The notes under the pieces were generated by a model. That model was not told the origin of the DNA, ran no database searches, and saw only the letters and a list, made by a program, of their open reading frames with translations. 25,074 nt of DNA from a virus (Duplodnaviria; Heunggongvirae; Uroviricota; Caudoviricetes), in IMG/VR virus record IMGVR_UViG_2684622619_000026; one strand, written 5' to 3'. The translations under genes were made by a program, and so were the position numbers. Below are positions 6,534-25,074 of this stretch, in pieces. How positions within the stretch are numbered: the stretch's first letter is position 1; each line of letters opens with the position of its first letter.

Positions 6534-7757
6534 ATGAGCATGGTTGAATGGATAAGCCACGAGAAAAAAGATAGCCTGATACTATTTGTACATGGATTAA
6601 ATGGTGGTTTGGAAACATGGAACTTTAATAAAGAAACTTCATTTCCAAAACTATTAGCAGAAGATGAAGACATTGGCAATGTATTTGATATTGCATGTTT
6701 CAATTATTTCACCAAATTTACACAAACGTATGCTAAAACGTCAGGATTATGGGCTCGTATTTTCTCTAAGAAAAATAAGTTAGAGAGAAATTTACCAACT
6801 GATGAAATAGCTGAGTTATTGTATACTGAGATTAGGGTAACGCTAAGTGATTACTCTCGAATTATAATAATCGCCCATAGTATGGGGGGGGTAATATCAA
6901 AAAATCTAATTCTAAAAAAAGTTGAGCATGAGGAACAATCTAATATAATTGGATTCATTTCGTTAGCAGTCCCTCACTTTGGTGCTAAATTGGCGAATAT
7001 AACTTCAATGGTATCTTCAAATGCTCAGTTAGTAGATCTTGGATTGTTAAGTGAAGCGACCGATACGTTGAATAGGCGCTGGATAAATTGTAGCAAAAAA
7101 CTTCCTATCACTAGATATGTTTATGGTTCTCATGACACTATAGTTGATAAAAAAAGCGCATTACCGATGGATAGTGAACGAAATAACTCAATTGCAGTTA
7201 ATGAAGGGCATAGCTCAATTTGCAAGCCCGAAAACAGCTCGTCTACAGTGTTTGTTGCGGTAAAGCAATTTATTCAGCAGATAAATTTAGAAGCACCCAA
7301 GAAGATATGTGTTGAGCGTTTTTCTGATGAGAAACAATATGATAATGAGTATTTCGTCTTAAAAATGATTGTCGCAGATATACATCAGGATATCGCTATG
7401 CATGCAAAGGAATATTATTATAATGCTGAGCTTGCGAGAAATATTTTTACGAGTGATTACGATAGGAAACTACTTGGTCATTTGTATTCTAAAATAAGGG
7501 AGATTTACCAGGAAGAGTATGAGCAATATATCGCGAATTCAATTTCCCCAGATAAATTTATTGCTGCTGTTCATAGACGAATAGCCCAAGAGGATAAGTC
7601 GTCGTTAGATTCTCTTATAAAAAGTTTAGAAACGATACATAAGAAAGGAATGTTGCATCAACTGGCTAACAAAAATGACAGGGATATTGTCTGGTCATCT
7701 GAAACCAGCGTAGAAACTTTGGAGCAATTACGGCGAGGTAATCATGAAGAAAAATAA
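6534..7757 (+). CDS. alpha/beta-hydrolase (serine esterase/lipase-like) effector candidate with C-terminal helical domain; first gene of cargo cassette
   Basis: 407 aa; LILFVHGLNGG (oxyanion-hole-like HG) and nucleophile elbow IIIAHSMGGV (G-x-S-x-G) in the N-terminal ~230 aa; candidate Asp (GSHDTIVD) and His (NEGHSSI); C-terminal ~170 aa charged and helical; about 33% GC versus >50% for the backbone. Confidence 0.7.
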   Translation: MSMVEWISHEKKDSLILFVHGLNGGLETWNFNKETSFPKLLAEDEDIGNVFDIACFNYFTKFTQTYAKTSGLWARIFSKKNKLERNLPTDEIAELLYTEIRVTLSDYSRIIIIAHSMGGVISKNLILKKVEHEEQSNIIGFISLAVPHFGAKLANITSMVSSNAQLVDLGLLSEATDTLNRRWINCSKKLPITRYVYGSHDTIVDKKSALPMDSERNNSIAVNEGHSSICKPENSSSTVFVAVKQFIQQINLEAPKKICVERFSDEKQYDNEYFVLKMIVADIHQDIAMHAKEYYYNAELARNIFTSDYDRKLLGHLYSKIREIYQEEYEQYIANSISPDKFIAAVHRRIAQEDKSSLDSLIKSLETIHKKGMLHQLANKNDRDIVWSSETSVETLEQLRRGNHEEK

Positions 7758-8256
7758 CTTGCCGTATATTCCTCTTGATGAAGAGTATAGCTTGAATTTT
7801 GCTATGCTTGCCATTGCTATATCTATATTATCTCATAGCAAAAAAGGAGTGTTATCATTAGATATTAATAAAATACAAATTTTTATGTATCTGATAAAAA
7901 ACCCATCAAAAATTGATTATGCTCTTACAGTTTCGGGGAAAAAGCCTGCTTGTGTCGAGTCCCAGTTAACTTATACAATAAAGAGTTTTTCAACAAATGT
8001 AGATATCTTATTCGACAATTCCAAAGTGAAATATCTTATAAAAATTATGTCATTGCGGGGATTGCTCTCAGCTGAGAAAAAAAATAATGAGAGTGTTAAA
8101 TTATTTTTATCTGAAAAAGGTAAGGAATTTGCTAGCTCATTGACTGATGGATATTTTAAAGAAATAAAACGACTATCCGAAGCATTGTTACCGCTACAAG
8201 CATTGCCTACCTCTAAGTTAAACTCTGTTATAAATCAAGTCTTCAAGGAGAAATGA
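7744..8256 (+). CDS. small protein, middle gene of cargo cassette (putative adaptor)
   Basis: 170 aa; GAGG SD 5 nt upstream; start overlaps the upstream stop by 14 nt and its stop overlaps the downstream start (ATGA); no recognisable catalytic motif; AT-rich. Confidence 0.65.
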   Translation: MKKNNLPYIPLDEEYSLNFAMLAIAISILSHSKKGVLSLDINKIQIFMYLIKNPSKIDYALTVSGKKPACVESQLTYTIKSFSTNVDILFDNSKVKYLIKIMSLRGLLSAEKKNNESVKLFLSEKGKEFASSLTDGYFKEIKRLSEALLPLQALPTSKLNSVINQVFKEK

Positions 8257-10223
8257 TGAAATCATATCTCAATATCAATAGTTTGATTCTTGTTGGCGTT
8301 CGTAAAAACTACGTCACTACTTTTTATAAAGGTCTCAATGTTATCTACGGAGACTCTGACACAGGTAAGTCAAGCATTCTGGAGTTTATTAATTATCTTT
8401 TAGGTGCTAGCTCTATAGATTTAGCAGATGAAATAAAAACATCAGTAAACTATGCTGCTCTTGAAGTAGTGATCAATGATACTGTATTCACAATCGTAAG
8501 AGATATCTATGATCATAAAAAAGCAATAGAAGTTTATCGTTGTAAGTTTGATGATTTACATAAACATTTTCCGAAAAAATACGCTCCTAATTATAGCCCA
8601 TTATCAAATGTTGATGGTGTTTTTTCGGAGTTTTTACTTGATAGTCTTAATTTTCCAAAGATTGAAATTAAGGTGTCTCCTTCTAAAGCTCATTCACAGA
8701 TGCGCAGGTTAAGTTTTAGAAATATATATAAATTTGTTTATGTAAGTCAGGATGATATTGGTAGTAAATCTTTCTTGCGATTGGGTGATTGGTCCCGCTA
8801 CGCATTTACGAAAGAAGTTTTTAAATACATGTTCAATGTGTTGGATGAAAGCATCGCCAGACTCCAAGGTGAAATATCTGCAAAAAGTAGTTTAGTAACG
8901 GAATTAAATAGGAAGTATCAGATAATATCTGAATTTCTTCGCGATACAGACTATGAAACGATTGAATCAATTGATGATGAGATTAATAGGATAGATCTTG
9001 TTTTAGAAGAACTTGTTGCAGGTTTGTCTGCTCTCGATAAAAATATGAAAGCGGATTCCATACAGTATACAGAATTGAAAGATGCTCACAATTTTATTTC
9101 GCTTAAATACAAAGAGTGCATATTAAATATTACTGCGCTTGAGGATAAGATTGATAAATATTCGCGGTTAAAAAATGACTATGATAATGATATTGAAAAA
9201 CTCAAAGCGATTAAAACAGCAAATTCTCGCATTGGTGTATTGGATAAGGAAGTATTTTCCTGTCCAGTCTGTGATAGCCACATTAAAATAGATGATTCTG
9301 ATTTTCCATTTGAAATTTCATCAGAAAAAGATCTTAATGAAGAGTTGAATTCACTTAGTCGACGTAGACGAAATATTAATGACATGATCTCAGAAATGTC
9401 ATTTAAATTAAAAAAAGAATCAGGTTATAAAAAGGAATTAGATGAACGACTTGACGAGTTGAGAGAATTGATTGACGAAGAAAGCCAGTCAATGATTACA
9501 CCATTCTTGACTCAGAGAGATTTTTATATTAAAGAGATCTCAAAAAATGAGAAGGTTAGGGAGCAGTTAGTAAAAGATTTGAAGGTTAGAAACCAGCAAG
9601 AGGAACTGCTTGAAAAGTATCAGGTACTGAGAAAAGATATTGAAGCATTAACTGAACGCTTGGAGGCGTTAAAGAAAAACGCACCTAGCATGGAGGGCAT
9701 TTTACAAGGTTTGGGTGATAGATTTAGTCAGTATTTGAAGGGTATTAATATCAAAAACAGAACGGGGATAAAAATCTCTGAAAGCTATTACATTCCTGTT
9801 ATAAGAGAAAAAGAATATTTTAAAATAACATCCGGAGGTTTGAGAACTATTTCTTCTATTGGGTATCTTTTGTCTATTCTTGATTATGCAATAGATCATA
9901 ATGTTAACCATCCTTTACTTTTGATATTTGATACGGTTGGCAAATATTTAGGGAAACAGACCAAGGAAAAATATTCAAAAGAAACTCTTGCATTCGAGGA
10001 TGACCTTGAGGGAATGTCAGATCCGATGAAGTATCAAAATATTTATGAACAACTATTGAATACAGTTCAAAAAGCAGAAAGAAAAAATGTTCCGTGCCAG
10101 ATTATATTAGTTGATAATGATTTGCCTAATTCGTTTTCTACTGGTGAACTTTCGAATATTATCGCTCATTATAGCTCGGTTGGTGAGGACGGTTTGCCTT
10201 TAGGTTTAATTGATGACCTTTAA
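8253..10223 (+). CDS. SMC/Rad50-like ABC ATPase with central CxxC motif; third gene of cargo cassette
   Basis: 656 aa; N-terminal Walker A GDSDTGKSS; long heptad-like charged middle region; CPVC near residue 337 (mid-protein); C-terminal TSGG signature-like motif followed by hydrophobic-D LLLIFDT (Walker B-like) and ILVDND. Start may be the ATG at 8256 (better spacing from AAGGAG). Confidence 0.75.
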   Translation: MMKSYLNINSLILVGVRKNYVTTFYKGLNVIYGDSDTGKSSILEFINYLLGASSIDLADEIKTSVNYAALEVVINDTVFTIVRDIYDHKKAIEVYRCKFDDLHKHFPKKYAPNYSPLSNVDGVFSEFLLDSLNFPKIEIKVSPSKAHSQMRRLSFRNIYKFVYVSQDDIGSKSFLRLGDWSRYAFTKEVFKYMFNVLDESIARLQGEISAKSSLVTELNRKYQIISEFLRDTDYETIESIDDEINRIDLVLEELVAGLSALDKNMKADSIQYTELKDAHNFISLKYKECILNITALEDKIDKYSRLKNDYDNDIEKLKAIKTANSRIGVLDKEVFSCPVCDSHIKIDDSDFPFEISSEKDLNEELNSLSRRRRNINDMISEMSFKLKKESGYKKELDERLDELRELIDEESQSMITPFLTQRDFYIKEISKNEKVREQLVKDLKVRNQQEELLEKYQVLRKDIEALTERLEALKKNAPSMEGILQGLGDRFSQYLKGINIKNRTGIKISESYYIPVIREKEYFKITSGGLRTISSIGYLLSILDYAIDHNVNHPLLLIFDTVGKYLGKQTKEKYSKETLAFEDDLEGMSDPMKYQNIYEQLLNTVQKAERKNVPCQIILVDNDLPNSFSTGELSNIIAHYSSVGEDGLPLGLIDDL

Positions 10224-21680: not shown

Positions 21681-22284
21681 TTCGCGCCTGCTGCCGACCG
21701 GCTCATCACCGCTTGAAGTCGCCGCCGCAAGAGCCTGTGCGGAAATTGAAAAAACGCCGGTCAGTATTCGTGAGCTGTGGAACCCGGATACCTGTCCGGC
21801 AAATCTGCTGCCGTGGCTGGCGTGGTCATTTTCGGTTGACCGCTGGGATGATAAGTGGCCGGAAGCGACAAAACGCGCTGTTATCCGCGATGCGTATTTC
21901 ATTCACTGCCATAAGGGCACTATTGGTGCGATTCGCCGTGTGGTGGAGCCGCTCGGCTATCTGATTGAGGTGAGGGAGTGGTGGCAGCTCAACGAGGAGC
22001 CGGGGACGTTCCGCATCGTTGTTGGCGTGCTTGAGCAGGGTATTACCGAGGAAATGTATCAGGAGCTGGAGCGTCTCGTTGCTGATGCAAAACCTGCAAG
22101 CCGCCATCTGACGGGACTGGCTATCAGTTTAAGTACAACCGGCAACATTTTTGCCGGTGCGGGATGCTATCACGGCGACGCCCTGACGGTTTATCCCTAC
22201 ACCCCGGAGGCCATTATTGTCGGAGGGGATTATTTCCCGGCCTCGGCCATTCATTTAATTGATAACCTGAGAGTAAACGCATGA
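21673..22284 (+). CDS. I: baseplate protein I
   Basis: N-terminus MSDSRLLPTGSSPLEVAAA recognised as P2 gpI-like; overlaps J and H ends. Confidence 0.85.
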   Translation: MSDSRLLPTGSSPLEVAAARACAEIEKTPVSIRELWNPDTCPANLLPWLAWSFSVDRWDDKWPEATKRAVIRDAYFIHCHKGTIGAIRRVVEPLGYLIEVREWWQLNEEPGTFRIVVGVLEQGITEEMYQELERLVADAKPASRHLTGLAISLSTTGNIFAGAGCYHGDALTVYPYTPEAIIVGGDYFPASAIHLIDNLRVNA

Positions 22285-23665
22285 CAGTGAAATACTACGC
22301 CATTCTGACTAATCAGGGCGCGGCACGGCTGGCTAACGCGACGATGCTCGGCAGTAAGCTGAATCTGACGCAAATGGCCGTTGGTGATGCAAATGGTGTC
22401 TTGCCGACACCTGACCCGGCACAGACAAAACTTATTAACCAGAAACGCATCGCGCCGCTGAATCTTCTGAGTGTTGACCCGAACAACCAGAGCCAGATTA
22501 TTGCGGAGCAAATCATCCCTGAGAACGAGGGCGGATTCTGGATCCGTGAGATTGGGCTTTATGATGATGAAGGCGTACTCATTGCGGTGGCGAACTGCCC
22601 GGAAACGTACAAACCGCAGTTACAGGAAGGCAGCGGTCGTACCCAGACTATCCGCATGATTCTGGTTGTCACGAATACCGAAGCCATCACGCTGAAAATC
22701 GACCCGTCGGTGGTACTGGCGACCCGTAAATACGTGGATGATAAAGTCCTGGAATTAAGGCTGTATGTGGATGACCAGATGAGAAACCACATTGCCGCAC
22801 AGGATCCTCATACCCAGTATGCGCAGAAACATAATCCGACATTTACCGGAGAACCAAAAGCGCCAACGCCTGCCGCAGGAAATAACACCACGCGGATTGC
22901 GACCACTGAGTTTGTTCAGACCGCTATTACCGCTCTGATTAACGGCGCGCCAGACACGCTGGACACACTGAAAGAAATTGCCGCGGCCATTAACAATGAC
23001 CCGAAATTCAGCACCACCATTAACAATGCGCTGTCAGGTAAGCAGCCACTGGATGAGACGCTGACTCATTTGAGTGGAAAGGATGTTGCCGGTCTTCTCG
23101 CATACCTTGGTTTGGGAGAAGNNNNNNNNNNNNNNNNNNNNNNNNNNNNNNNNNNNNNNNNNNNNNNNNNNTTGGTTTGGGAGAAGGTTCGGCATTACCC
23201 GTTGGTGTGCCTGTTCCGTGGCCTTCAGCCACTCCGCCGACAGGCTGGCTGAAATGCAACGGGGCGGCTTTTTCTGCTGAAGAATACCCGGAACTGGCAA
23301 AGGTTTACCCGACAAATAAATTGCCTGATTTACGTGGTGAGTTTATTCGTGGCTGGGATGACGGACGTGGAGTGGATAACGGAAGGGGATTATTGACGCT
23401 TCAGGACGGTGCGATTGTCAGTCATAACCACTATTGGGGAATCTGGACTTCACGAACTAACGACCAGACTCTGGAAAGTTTTACAGGCACCACGATTTTA
23501 AAACAAATCACGCCCCTGTCTCCGGCCATTAACTTCGATAATTACCCAATTCCCAACCCGGCTATTACAGAGGGTGGTGTTGTTGCGGCAACGACTAAAC
23601 CTGCAGGTGCGAATGAAACACGCCCACGAAATGTCGCTTTTAACTATATTGTGAGGGCTGCATAA
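22281..23665 (+). CDS. H: tail fibre protein H (constant part 22281-23121 plus currently joined variable C-terminal segment 23172-23665; interrupted by a scaffold gap)
   Basis: Constant part ends ...AYLGLGE at the gap; after the gap the frame continues GLGEGSALPVGVPVPWPSATPP...; collapsing the 15-bp duplicate flanking the Ns gives a continuous in-frame gene. Confidence 0.8.
23122..23171. other. assembly/scaffold gap (50 N)
   Basis: Run of 50 N flanked on both sides by the same 15-nt sequence TTGGTTTGGGAGAAG (23107-23121 and 23172-23186). Confidence 0.95.
23174..23186 (+). repeat. left inverted repeat / candidate recombination crossover site
   Basis: GGTTTGGGAGAAG encoding G-L-G-E at the constant/variable junction of H. 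Confidence 0.6.
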
Positions 23666-24267
23666 TGAATAACGCAGAATTAAACAGTGAATTAATTGCC
23701 ACTATGGCAGGAGAAATTACTGTTTATAACTTTGATGTCATGAGTCGGGAATATATTTCAGCTTCAACTGAATATCTTGCTATTGGTGTCGGCATTCCGG
23801 CATATTCCTGTTTAGATGCCCCAGGCGCATACAAAGCTGGTTATGCAATCTGCCGTTCTGCAGATTTTAACTCATGGGAATATGTGCCAGACCATCGCGG
23901 TGAAATCGTCTTTAGCACCGAAACAGGAGAATCAAAAGAAATCACCGCTCCGGGTGATTACCCTGATAATACAACCACTATCGCCCCGTTAACGCCATAC
24001 GATAAATGGGATGGTGAGAAATGGGTGACGGATACCGAAGCACAGCATAGCGCCGCAGTAGAAGCGGCAGAAACACAACGCCAGTCGCTGATTGATACTG
24101 CAATGGCTTCCATTAGTCTGATTCAGCTGAAATTACAGGCCGGACGGAAGCTGACGCAGGCAGAAACCAACCGACTTAACACGGTGCTGGATTACATTGA
24201 CGCGGTGACGGCAACAGATACCAGCACCGCGCCGGATGTCATCTGGCCTGAACTGCCGGAGGCGTAG
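23665..24267 (+). CDS. G: tail fibre assembly chaperone G
   Basis: 200 aa immediately after the fibre gene (ATGA overlap); C-terminal LDYIDAVTATDTSTAPDVIWPELPEA resembles the conserved Tfa C-terminus. Confidence 0.85.
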   Translation: MNNAELNSELIATMAGEITVYNFDVMSREYISASTEYLAIGVGIPAYSCLDAPGAYKAGYAICRSADFNSWEYVPDHRGEIVFSTETGESKEITAPGDYPDNTTTIAPLTPYDKWDGEKWVTDTEAQHSAAVEAAETQRQSLIDTAMASISLIQLKLQAGRKLTQAETNRLNTVLDYIDAVTATDTSTAPDVIWPELPEA

Positions 24268-24682
24268 GCCATTCAATATCTGGCGCACTGGCGGTATCGA
24301 CCAGCTCCAGTGCGTCCAGATAATCCAGCCACAAATTATATTGTGCCAGTTCCTCACCTTTCAGACGACCAATAGCGGCTTTACCGGGCCATTGCTTACT
24401 GTTCATGTATTCGTTGGCCTGGTTAATTAGTAGCTGTCTTTCTGATTCAGTAATTTCAATAAGTTCTTCATGCGTGGGTGGAGGAATATCTGCCCACGCA
24501 GGCAGCCCATCATCTCCGGCAATACGGATTTTTCCTTGTGGCGGTTCAGCCATAAACTCACTGATAATATTTTGATTTACTTCCTTAGCGTCTGATAAAT
24601 CCCATCCCTCTGATTTATATTTATCAATCATATCCACAGGGAAAAAAGCATTATGCCTTGCGCTATAAACATATTCGTTCAT
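24239..24682 (-). CDS. alternative tail fibre assembly chaperone (Tfa-prime, partner of the minus-strand fibre segment)
   Basis: Start taken at ATG 24682 (MNEYVY...; AGGGTGA upstream); C-terminus LWLDYLDALELVDTASAPDIEWPTPPAVQAR parallels the C-terminus of G; converges on and overlaps G by 29 nt. Confidence 0.75.
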   Translation of the reverse strand: MNEYVYSARHNAFFPVDMIDKYKSEGWDLSDAKEVNQNIISEFMAEPPQGKIRIAGDDGLPAWADIPPPTHEELIEITESERQLLINQANEYMNSKQWPGKAAIGRLKGEELAQYNLWLDYLDALELVDTASAPDIEWPTPPAVQAR

Positions 24683-24702
24683 ATAAATCACCCTAAATAA
24701 AA

Positions 24703-25074
24703 TTACTCACCAACAGCCCACCAACTGTAATTCATCGATACCGTGTCGCTGGTTGATGACGTTCTGTAAGCAGAATTAAAGCCGGTTAACGTTGGGCCTT
24801 CTGCAGTCATCACGAACCCTCGCCCAGCGCCTAAAGGCGCACCGCCATCACCAGAATGAGTAAGCATGGCGCAGTCCGCTTTTTTGGGGAAAGGGATGCT
24901 GAATGTAATTCTCATTGTTTGCGTCGATAATGTCGGCGTAACCGCACCACGACCATATTGCAGGATTTTCCCGTTGGGTAATTTCATCCATCCATTACCA
25001 CTGGCAAAAGAGGCCATGTCCGGTATCTGATTTTCCCCTGTCCCCACATCCCGTTTTGCCGCTTCTCCCAAACC
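24703..25074 (-). CDS. alternative tail fibre C-terminal (receptor-binding) segment, promoterless, no own start; partial at window edge
   Basis: Minus-strand frame runs from the window edge (GLGEAAKRDVGTGENQIPD...) to a stop at 24703, directly followed by Tfa-prime; shares the G-L-G-E junction with the constant part of H. Confidence 0.65.
   Translation of the reverse strand, partial: GLGEAAKRDVGTGENQIPDMASFASGNGWMKLPNGKILQYGRGAVTPTLSTQTMRITFSIPFPKKADCAMLTHSGDGGAPLGAGRGFVMTAEGPTLTGFNSAYRTSSTSDTVSMNYSWWAVGE
25062..25074 (-). repeat. right inverted repeat / candidate recombination crossover site (truncated by window end)
   Basis: Reverse complement of the window's last 13 nt is GGTTTGGGAGAAG, in frame with the minus-strand alternative fibre segment. 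Confidence 0.6.

Follow-up and report, generated by a model that had tools for sequence, protein, structure and literature searches.

The window analysed here, that is, the whole stretch of 25,074 nt, covers part of a P2-like prophage, which is located between yegR and yegQ in the complete genome of E. coli O157:H7 Rafaela_II (NZ_CP076230.1, RefSeq). The RefSeq annotation of this genome and the layout of open reading frames in the window give the P2 gene order: integrase, repressor/cox, A, three accessory genes, portal and terminase, capsid, lysis, V-W-J-I and H. Two opposed tail-fibre assembly genes, a cut fibre gene, a gene for a 'recombinase family protein', sheath, tube, tape measure, D and ogr follow H. 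The genes of portal Q and terminase P lie on the opposite strand in the P2-like order and are followed by O-N-M-L. The window starts exactly at the start codon of yegR, which occupies positions 1-318, and the integrase gene comes next at 583-1596 on the minus strand; therefore, the left attachment site is predicted to lie between 318 and 583.

The accessory genes at 6534-10223 on the plus strand, between A and Q, were identified with PADLOC as a Lamassu anti-phage defence system, consisting of LmuA (407 aa, E 3.5e-108), LmuC (170 aa, E 1.5e-52) and LmuB (656 aa, E 1.5e-235). RefSeq names the products of these genes 'ABC-three component system' proteins and an AAA ATPase. The position between A and Q is a known variable hotspot of P2-like phages.

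The tail-fibre gene H lies near the right end of the window. Its constant N-terminal part, Sc, extends from 22281 to 23121 on the plus strand, where residues 1-150 match the Pfam family Phage_tail_fib (E 1.7e-62). This part is 100% identical to many complete O157:H7 genomes and runs to the end of the left contig. In the orientation shown, the variable C-terminus of H, Sv, is located at 23187-23665 on the plus strand, where a Pfam Collar domain was found at residues 287-334 of the 439-aa protein (E 1.4e-14). Sv is followed on the same strand by the paired tail-fibre assembly chaperone U (23665-24267, 200 aa; Pfam Caudo_TAP, E 1.3e-32), annotated in RefSeq as 'tail fiber assembly protein'. On the minus strand, the alternative C-terminus Sv' at 24703-25061 is accompanied by its own assembly chaperone U' (24239-24682, 147 aa; Caudo_TAP, E 8.4e-31), which is also annotated in RefSeq. 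Between the two crossover sites lies an interior of 1,875 bp, of which one strand encodes Sv-U and the opposite strand U'-Sv'. The arrangement is that of a tail-fibre switch, with Sc outside the segment and both Sv and Sv' inside it, each with a Caudo_TAP chaperone of its own.

After inversion, Sv' is fused in frame to Sc and the product has 399 residues. In the protein constructed in this way, Phage_tail_fib is joined to a Gp53-like_C domain at residues 307-398 (E 5.4e-12), and a product of 399 aa is called on the draft contig L021. In complete genomes with the Sv' orientation, among them NZ_CP038416.1, H is annotated as a pseudogene 'missing C-terminus' beside a 'gp53-like domain-containing protein' of its own. 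Automatic annotation fails here, as Sc-Sv' in the inverted state is a continuous frame of 399 aa.

The only run of Ns in the window is a scaffold gap of 50 Ns at 23122-23171, and the 15-mer TTGGTTTGGGAGAAG abuts it on both sides, the first copy being located at 23107-23121 and the second at 23172-23186, both on the plus strand. No further copy was found elsewhere in the window when up to two mismatches were allowed. In shuffled sequence, the mean number of TTGGTTTGGGAGAAG matches was 0.07, and none of the 100 shuffles contained two or more. The last 13 nt of the window (25062-25074) are CTTCTCCCAAACC, the reverse complement of the final 13 nt of the 15-mer. The identical 15-mer on either side of the Ns, as reported in the initial annotation, is confirmed by these positions, and its statement that the window ends on the inverted copy of the 15-mer is correct for 13 of the 15 nt, the last 2 nt being located outside the window.

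Over its last 3,372 nt, with the 50-N gap, the window agrees without any difference with the public contig LEAE01000015.1 (GCA_001309885.1; 65,159 bp). This contig is probably the source record of the window, as judged from the identity over 3,372 nt including the gap. The contig extends by 2 nt (AA) past the window and ends exactly on the complete inverted 15-mer, at the position corresponding to 25076. The window end was also considered as an arbitrary cut; this was rejected, as the identical contig stops only 2 nt later. The window seems to have been trimmed back to the final in-frame codon of the truncated gene, and its end appears to be, in effect, the contig end.

The gap was examined by means of a collapsed window of 25,009 bp, in which the Ns and one copy of the 15-mer (65 nt) were deleted. 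Compared with NZ_CP076230.1, the collapsed window has only two mismatches over its 25,009 positions, at 24970 and 24996. The two flanks, 22281-23121 and 23172-25074, share exactly 15 nt where they meet in complete genomes; for example, the right flank begins at 1948803 in NZ_CP076230.1, ahead of the last base of the left flank at 1948817. When 300 nt spanning the collapsed junction were used as a query, full-length matches with 100% identity were obtained in 37 complete genomes, and the form with the 15-mer duplicated in tandem was not found in the one complete-genome locus that was searched for it. Collapsing the duplicate also restores the reading frame of H, giving a protein of 439 aa that has both the N-terminal fibre domain and the tail-collar domain, and the 1,320-nt gene of a 'phage tail protein' in RefSeq spans the collapsed junction. 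In the gapped record, H is called as two products of 280 aa and 162 aa; since 65 is not divisible by 3, the frame is broken in the gapped form. The 50-N gap is empty and no sequence is missing. One copy of the 15-mer is spurious, namely, the copy at 23172-23186, which is the start of the contig carrying the invertible segment, and the Ns at 23122-23171 are a placeholder for a true distance of −15 nt between two overlapping contigs. The earlier proposals that the gap is probably not missing sequence and that collapsing the duplicate gives an in-frame H gene were both borne out, by the 15-nt overlap of the flanks, the near identity with NZ_CP076230.1 and the frame of 439 aa.

The 15-mer is part of a pair of crossover sites, which were compared with the table of Din-family sites in PMC3241671 (Table 3). 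The left site is a pixL-like sequence of 26 bp at 23095-23120 on the plus strand, consisting of the outer half TTCTCGCATACC, the core TT at 23107-23108 and the inner half GGTTTGGGAGAA. Its bottom strand reads TTCTCCCAAACC AA GGTATGCGAGAA, a sequence that conforms to the dix consensus and shares 23 of 26 positions with the published pixL. For the right site, which is of the pixR type, the inner 13 nt are found at 25062-25074 on the minus strand, and the core AA and the outer half CGTTTATGAAAA extend beyond the window; its first 12 nt were therefore taken from the window and the rest from identical complete genomes. In the complete genomes the right site reads TTCTCCCAAACC AA CGTTTATGAAAA, identical to pixR of e14 at 26 of 26 positions, and e14 of K-12 has the identical inner half-site and core. 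Both sites have the core AA, are in inverted orientation and fit the dix consensus, as sites of the Din family do; the AA core is where the strands are cut and exchanged (PMC3241671). When the left site is aligned with the reverse complement of the right site of a complete genome, the identity starts at TT and stops after GAAG. The 15-mer, of which the first copy includes the core dinucleotide, the 12-nt inner half-site and one further base, is the longest exact inverted repeat between the sites because the outer half-sites differ from the first base.

The invertase gene is located outside the window; its start lies about 70 nt to the right of the right site in those complete genomes that match the window exactly. 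The product has 197 aa, with a Resolvase domain (PF00239, E 2.7e-52) and a C-terminal helix-turn-helix domain, HTH_7 (PF02796, E 4.7e-13), which is the composition of an invertase-subclass serine recombinase, and residues 1-182 align to the structure of Mu Gin (3UJ3, E 1e-93). A scan of the invertase and the three hotspot proteins against NCBIfam gave no match above the curated cut-offs. The residues Q151, R154 and L155 of Hin were reported to be uniquely conserved in Fis-dependent invertases (PMC3798978), and the corresponding Q, R and L are present here in the stretch ...WEQVGRLL... The first 240 nt of the gene show a mean column identity of 89% with pinE of e14, pinE of Sp1 and gin of Mu. 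This DNA identity could be explained by the conservation of the coding sequence alone, and no Fis enhancer is established from it.

The segment occurs in both orientations among complete genomes, with precise exchange at the sites, as expected for the Din family. In strain 3-5-1, the interior is the exact reverse complement of that in the window and the flanks are unchanged. Counts of junctions gave about 40 complete genomes with Sc-Sv and about 37 with Sc-Sv', where the Sc-Sv count was taken at ≥99% identity; the two add up to the 77 complete genomes that have Sc at ≥99%. TW14359 and EC4115, both isolates from the 2006 spinach outbreak, are opposite in the orientation of the segment. This near-even split among near-identical genomes indicates that switching is fast compared with the divergence of the strains. 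Fast switching agrees with the finding that the Pin segment of e14 occurs at about 1:1 in clonal E. coli cultures (PMC4272514); the fibre segments of P2-like prophages were also reported there to vary. Inversion joins Sc to Sv or to Sv', each of which has its chaperone directly behind it; in this manner, the tip of the fibre is exchanged and, presumably, the host range as well.

The effect of such a mixture on assembly was examined using de Bruijn unitigs at k = 31, 64 and 96, with the locus supplied in one or both orientations and with or without the Sp1 paralog described below. When the orientation was fixed, the Sc unitig passed straight through the junction. When both orientations were supplied, the Sc unitig ended at 23121, the Sv unitig began with the 15-mer and the Sv' unitig stopped at 25076. 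The ends of the left break (23121 and the start of the 15-mer) were reproduced only by the locus in mixed orientation, at all three values of k. The ends in the record (23121, 23172 and 25076) and the 15-nt overlap are those of the mixed-orientation unitigs: the inner edge of the repeat is where the flank contig stops, the segment contig has its two ends at the outer edges, and the overlap is equal to the length of the repeat.

The same break was found in other assemblies. The cut product that begins at the right site is indexed in 172 blocks of a public collection, compared with 52 for the one that begins at the left site; in 155 and 41 of these blocks, respectively, no contig with the product reaches 2 kb. 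All of the inspected stand-alone contigs (L008-L016 and L019-L027) begin at TTGGTTTGGGAGAAG. In two other inspected scaffold records, the 15-mer comes immediately after an N gap, and in the scaffold JH955755.1 an N gap is located directly ahead of the same 15-mer. Several contigs from independent assemblies are exactly 1,905 bp in length, corresponding to 15 + 1,875 + 15, and one of them occurs in at least 20 samples. Two contigs of 1,920 bp were also found, one of which runs into the flank on the invertase side and the other into the flank on the Sc side. Contig ends or discordant reads at short inverted repeats around a segment that occurs in both orientations are the basis of read-based methods for finding inversions (PMC5903667; PMC4272514).

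Based on these results, the following process can be proposed for the present record. The presence of both orientations in the k-mer graph would create a four-way junction at each site, so that the contig of the flank would stop where the 15-bp exact repeat ends on the inner side, the contig of the segment would begin and end at the outer edges of the repeat, and the short junction pieces would be dropped. A paired-end scaffolder would then join two contigs overlapping by 15 nt and write a gap of the minimum size, 50 N, and the scaffold would stop at the right site. The length of 50 N is probably the default minimum gap of the ABySS scaffolder, set where the true distance between the contigs is −15; a literature search for the default value of the '--min-gap' option found no papers. 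DNA of strain O157:H7 CO6CE900 (BioProject PRJNA277539), to which the LEAE accession belongs, came from an overnight culture, and the 100-bp paired-end HiSeq reads (about 470x) were assembled using ABySS 1.3.4 (PMC4563881). Reference-guided scaffolding was also considered as the origin of the gap, and a paired-end join appears more likely. This P2-like prophage is presumably absent from EDL933 and Sakai, and the matches found in these two genomes map to the Sp1 locus. Both were used as references in the assembly paper (PMC4563881).

In O157:H7, the defective prophage Sp1 also contains an invertible segment of the Pin type, with the genes stf/tfaE/yfdK/yfdL/pinE. The Sp1 segment, located for example at 304629-307446 in Sakai, is flanked by pix sites, has its own pinE and contains the identical 15-mer and right site. 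Each of the two invertases could presumably act at its own locus and at the other one, and an exchange between the P2-like and Sp1 loci by recombination is conceivable. The region 23986-25074 of the window is 97% identical to the Sp1 segment and the 379 nt at 24696-25074 are 100% identical to Sp1 Sv'; BLAST gave no Sp1 match to the Sv arm (23187-23985). The two positions at which the collapsed window differs from NZ_CP076230.1, 24970 and 24996, are within the 379-nt stretch and have the alleles of the Sp1 type, one of which changes D to N in Sv'. Among the complete genomes, none has these Sp1 alleles in the P2-like copy, and the best match to the whole segment is 99.9%.

The two differences probably result from collapse of the paralogs in short-read assembly. 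Seven draft contigs (L008, L020-L022 and L025-L027) are mosaic at the positions that distinguish the P2-like and Sp1 copies (24289-24293, 24464, 24679 and 24695), which suggests that mixing of the two in the consensus is widespread in public short-read assemblies. The alternative, that the alleles are real and that the tip of Sv' was taken from Sp1 through gene conversion or Pin-mediated recombination at the pix sites, is improbable; it would, if true, be a natural exchange of a host-range cassette between an intact and a decayed prophage on one chromosome.

The Sp1 paralog must also be considered as a cause of the breaks themselves. The view that the breaks arose solely from the collapse of this dispersed repeat, without any mixture of orientations at the P2-like locus, is favored by the 97% and 100% identities of the right-hand part and the Sp1 alleles at both differing positions; moreover, unitigs with only Sp1 in the opposite arrangement also ended Sv' at the observed position of 25076 (k = 31 and 64). 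With Sp1 in the same arrangement, however, the right break was placed at 25101 instead. The left break is not accounted for in this way, because neither Sv nor the end of Sc is duplicated, both occurring at one place per genome, and the Sc unitig crossed the junction in every scenario with fixed orientation. The stand-alone contigs of 1,905 bp that start at the left site in many samples also argue against collapse of the Sp1 repeat. As the sole cause of both breaks, Sp1 was thus rejected for the left one and is retained as a possible contributor to the right one, for which it could be a second sufficient cause; the explanation by repeat collapse alone is unlikely.

Two further explanations were considered. 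Unsequenced DNA between the two 15-mers, such as a tandem duplication or an insertion, has nothing in its favor except the 50 Ns taken at face value; however, in complete genomes that match either side exactly, the flanks meet at one 15-mer, and the frame of H is restored by the collapse and broken by the gapped form. The probability of a real gap is negligible. A chance break caused by local low coverage or sequencing error, with the location at the repeat being coincidental, has nothing specific in its favor and is very improbable considering the coverage of about 470x (PMC4563881), the match of both contig ends to the edges of the exact repeat to the base, and the recurrence of the same end points in tens to hundreds of independent assemblies.

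The empty gap, the pix-type sites, the occurrence of both orientations among near-identical genomes and the recurrence of the break in other assemblies are direct observations. The mixed orientation as the cause of the break is supported by the exact inversion, the split of about 40:37, the 1,905-bp contigs, the unitig test and the ratio of about 1:1 for e14 (PMC4272514), and the sequenced DNA very probably held both orientations. It is highly likely, therefore, that the locus is a P2-like prophage with a pix-type invertible fibre segment, and that the presence of both orientations in the DNA made the assembler break the sequence and leave an empty 50-N gap. The initial annotation had given, as the likely explanation of the break, a segment that exists in both orientations in the sequenced population; this cause is strongly supported by the above evidence, and the right break has a second sufficient cause in the Sp1 paralog.

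For users of the record, the result means that an intact H gene has been split into two products, which can be repaired by deleting 65 nt, and that the same break is to be found in many O157:H7 draft assemblies. The stretch of about 379 nt at 24696-25074 should be treated with caution, as it may be a consensus merged with the Sp1 paralog. The diagnosis is the correct one of an ordinary artefact at a known element, and its value is in the curation of the record rather than in new biology. Fibre switches of the Pin/Gin type, their sites and the mixture of their orientations in clonal cultures are already established.

The segment is a member of the Hin/Gin/Cin/Pin family, closest in its sites to the P segment/Pin of e14 and in its layout to the G segment of Mu. 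It resembles the P segment with PinE in E. coli K-12 not only in the sites (26/26 for pixR on the right and 23/26 for pixL on the left) but also in the layout, in which a constant part of the fibre is followed by two alternative C-termini with chaperones and by the invertase on the right, and both orientations of the P segment coexist in clonal cultures (PMC4272514). However, e14 is a lambdoid remnant, whereas the present prophage is an apparently complete P2-like one; segments of the e14/Sp1 type have no counterpart of the tail-collar Sv arm (23187-23985), and PinE of e14 has 184 aa compared to 197 aa for the invertase here. The breaks are of the kind known from phase-variable inversions, and here they were additionally turned into an N gap and a duplicated 15-mer in the deposited record.

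The G segment of Mu with Gin, and likewise the C segment of P1 with Cin, has the same architecture of Sc-Sv-U and U'-Sv' with the invertase to the right. The close alignment of the present invertase to Gin and the fit of the sites to the Din consensus are in keeping with this likeness. The core of gix in Mu is GA, whereas it is AA here, as in pix, cix and hix; the G segment is about 3 kb in length compared to about 1.9 kb here, and the backbone here is P2-like. Classical P2 is not known to carry an invertible segment. A P2-like phage of O157:H43 T22 (KC618326 / NC_041848) matches the region from H to the invertase with 92% identity over 93% coverage, and two tail-fibre assembly genes and a 'phage DNA invertase' are annotated in KC618326. 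The present prophage is thus of a type already deposited with an annotated invertase, as are other P2-like phages with an invertase gene. The phage of T22 is from a different host lineage and is not identical to the present prophage.
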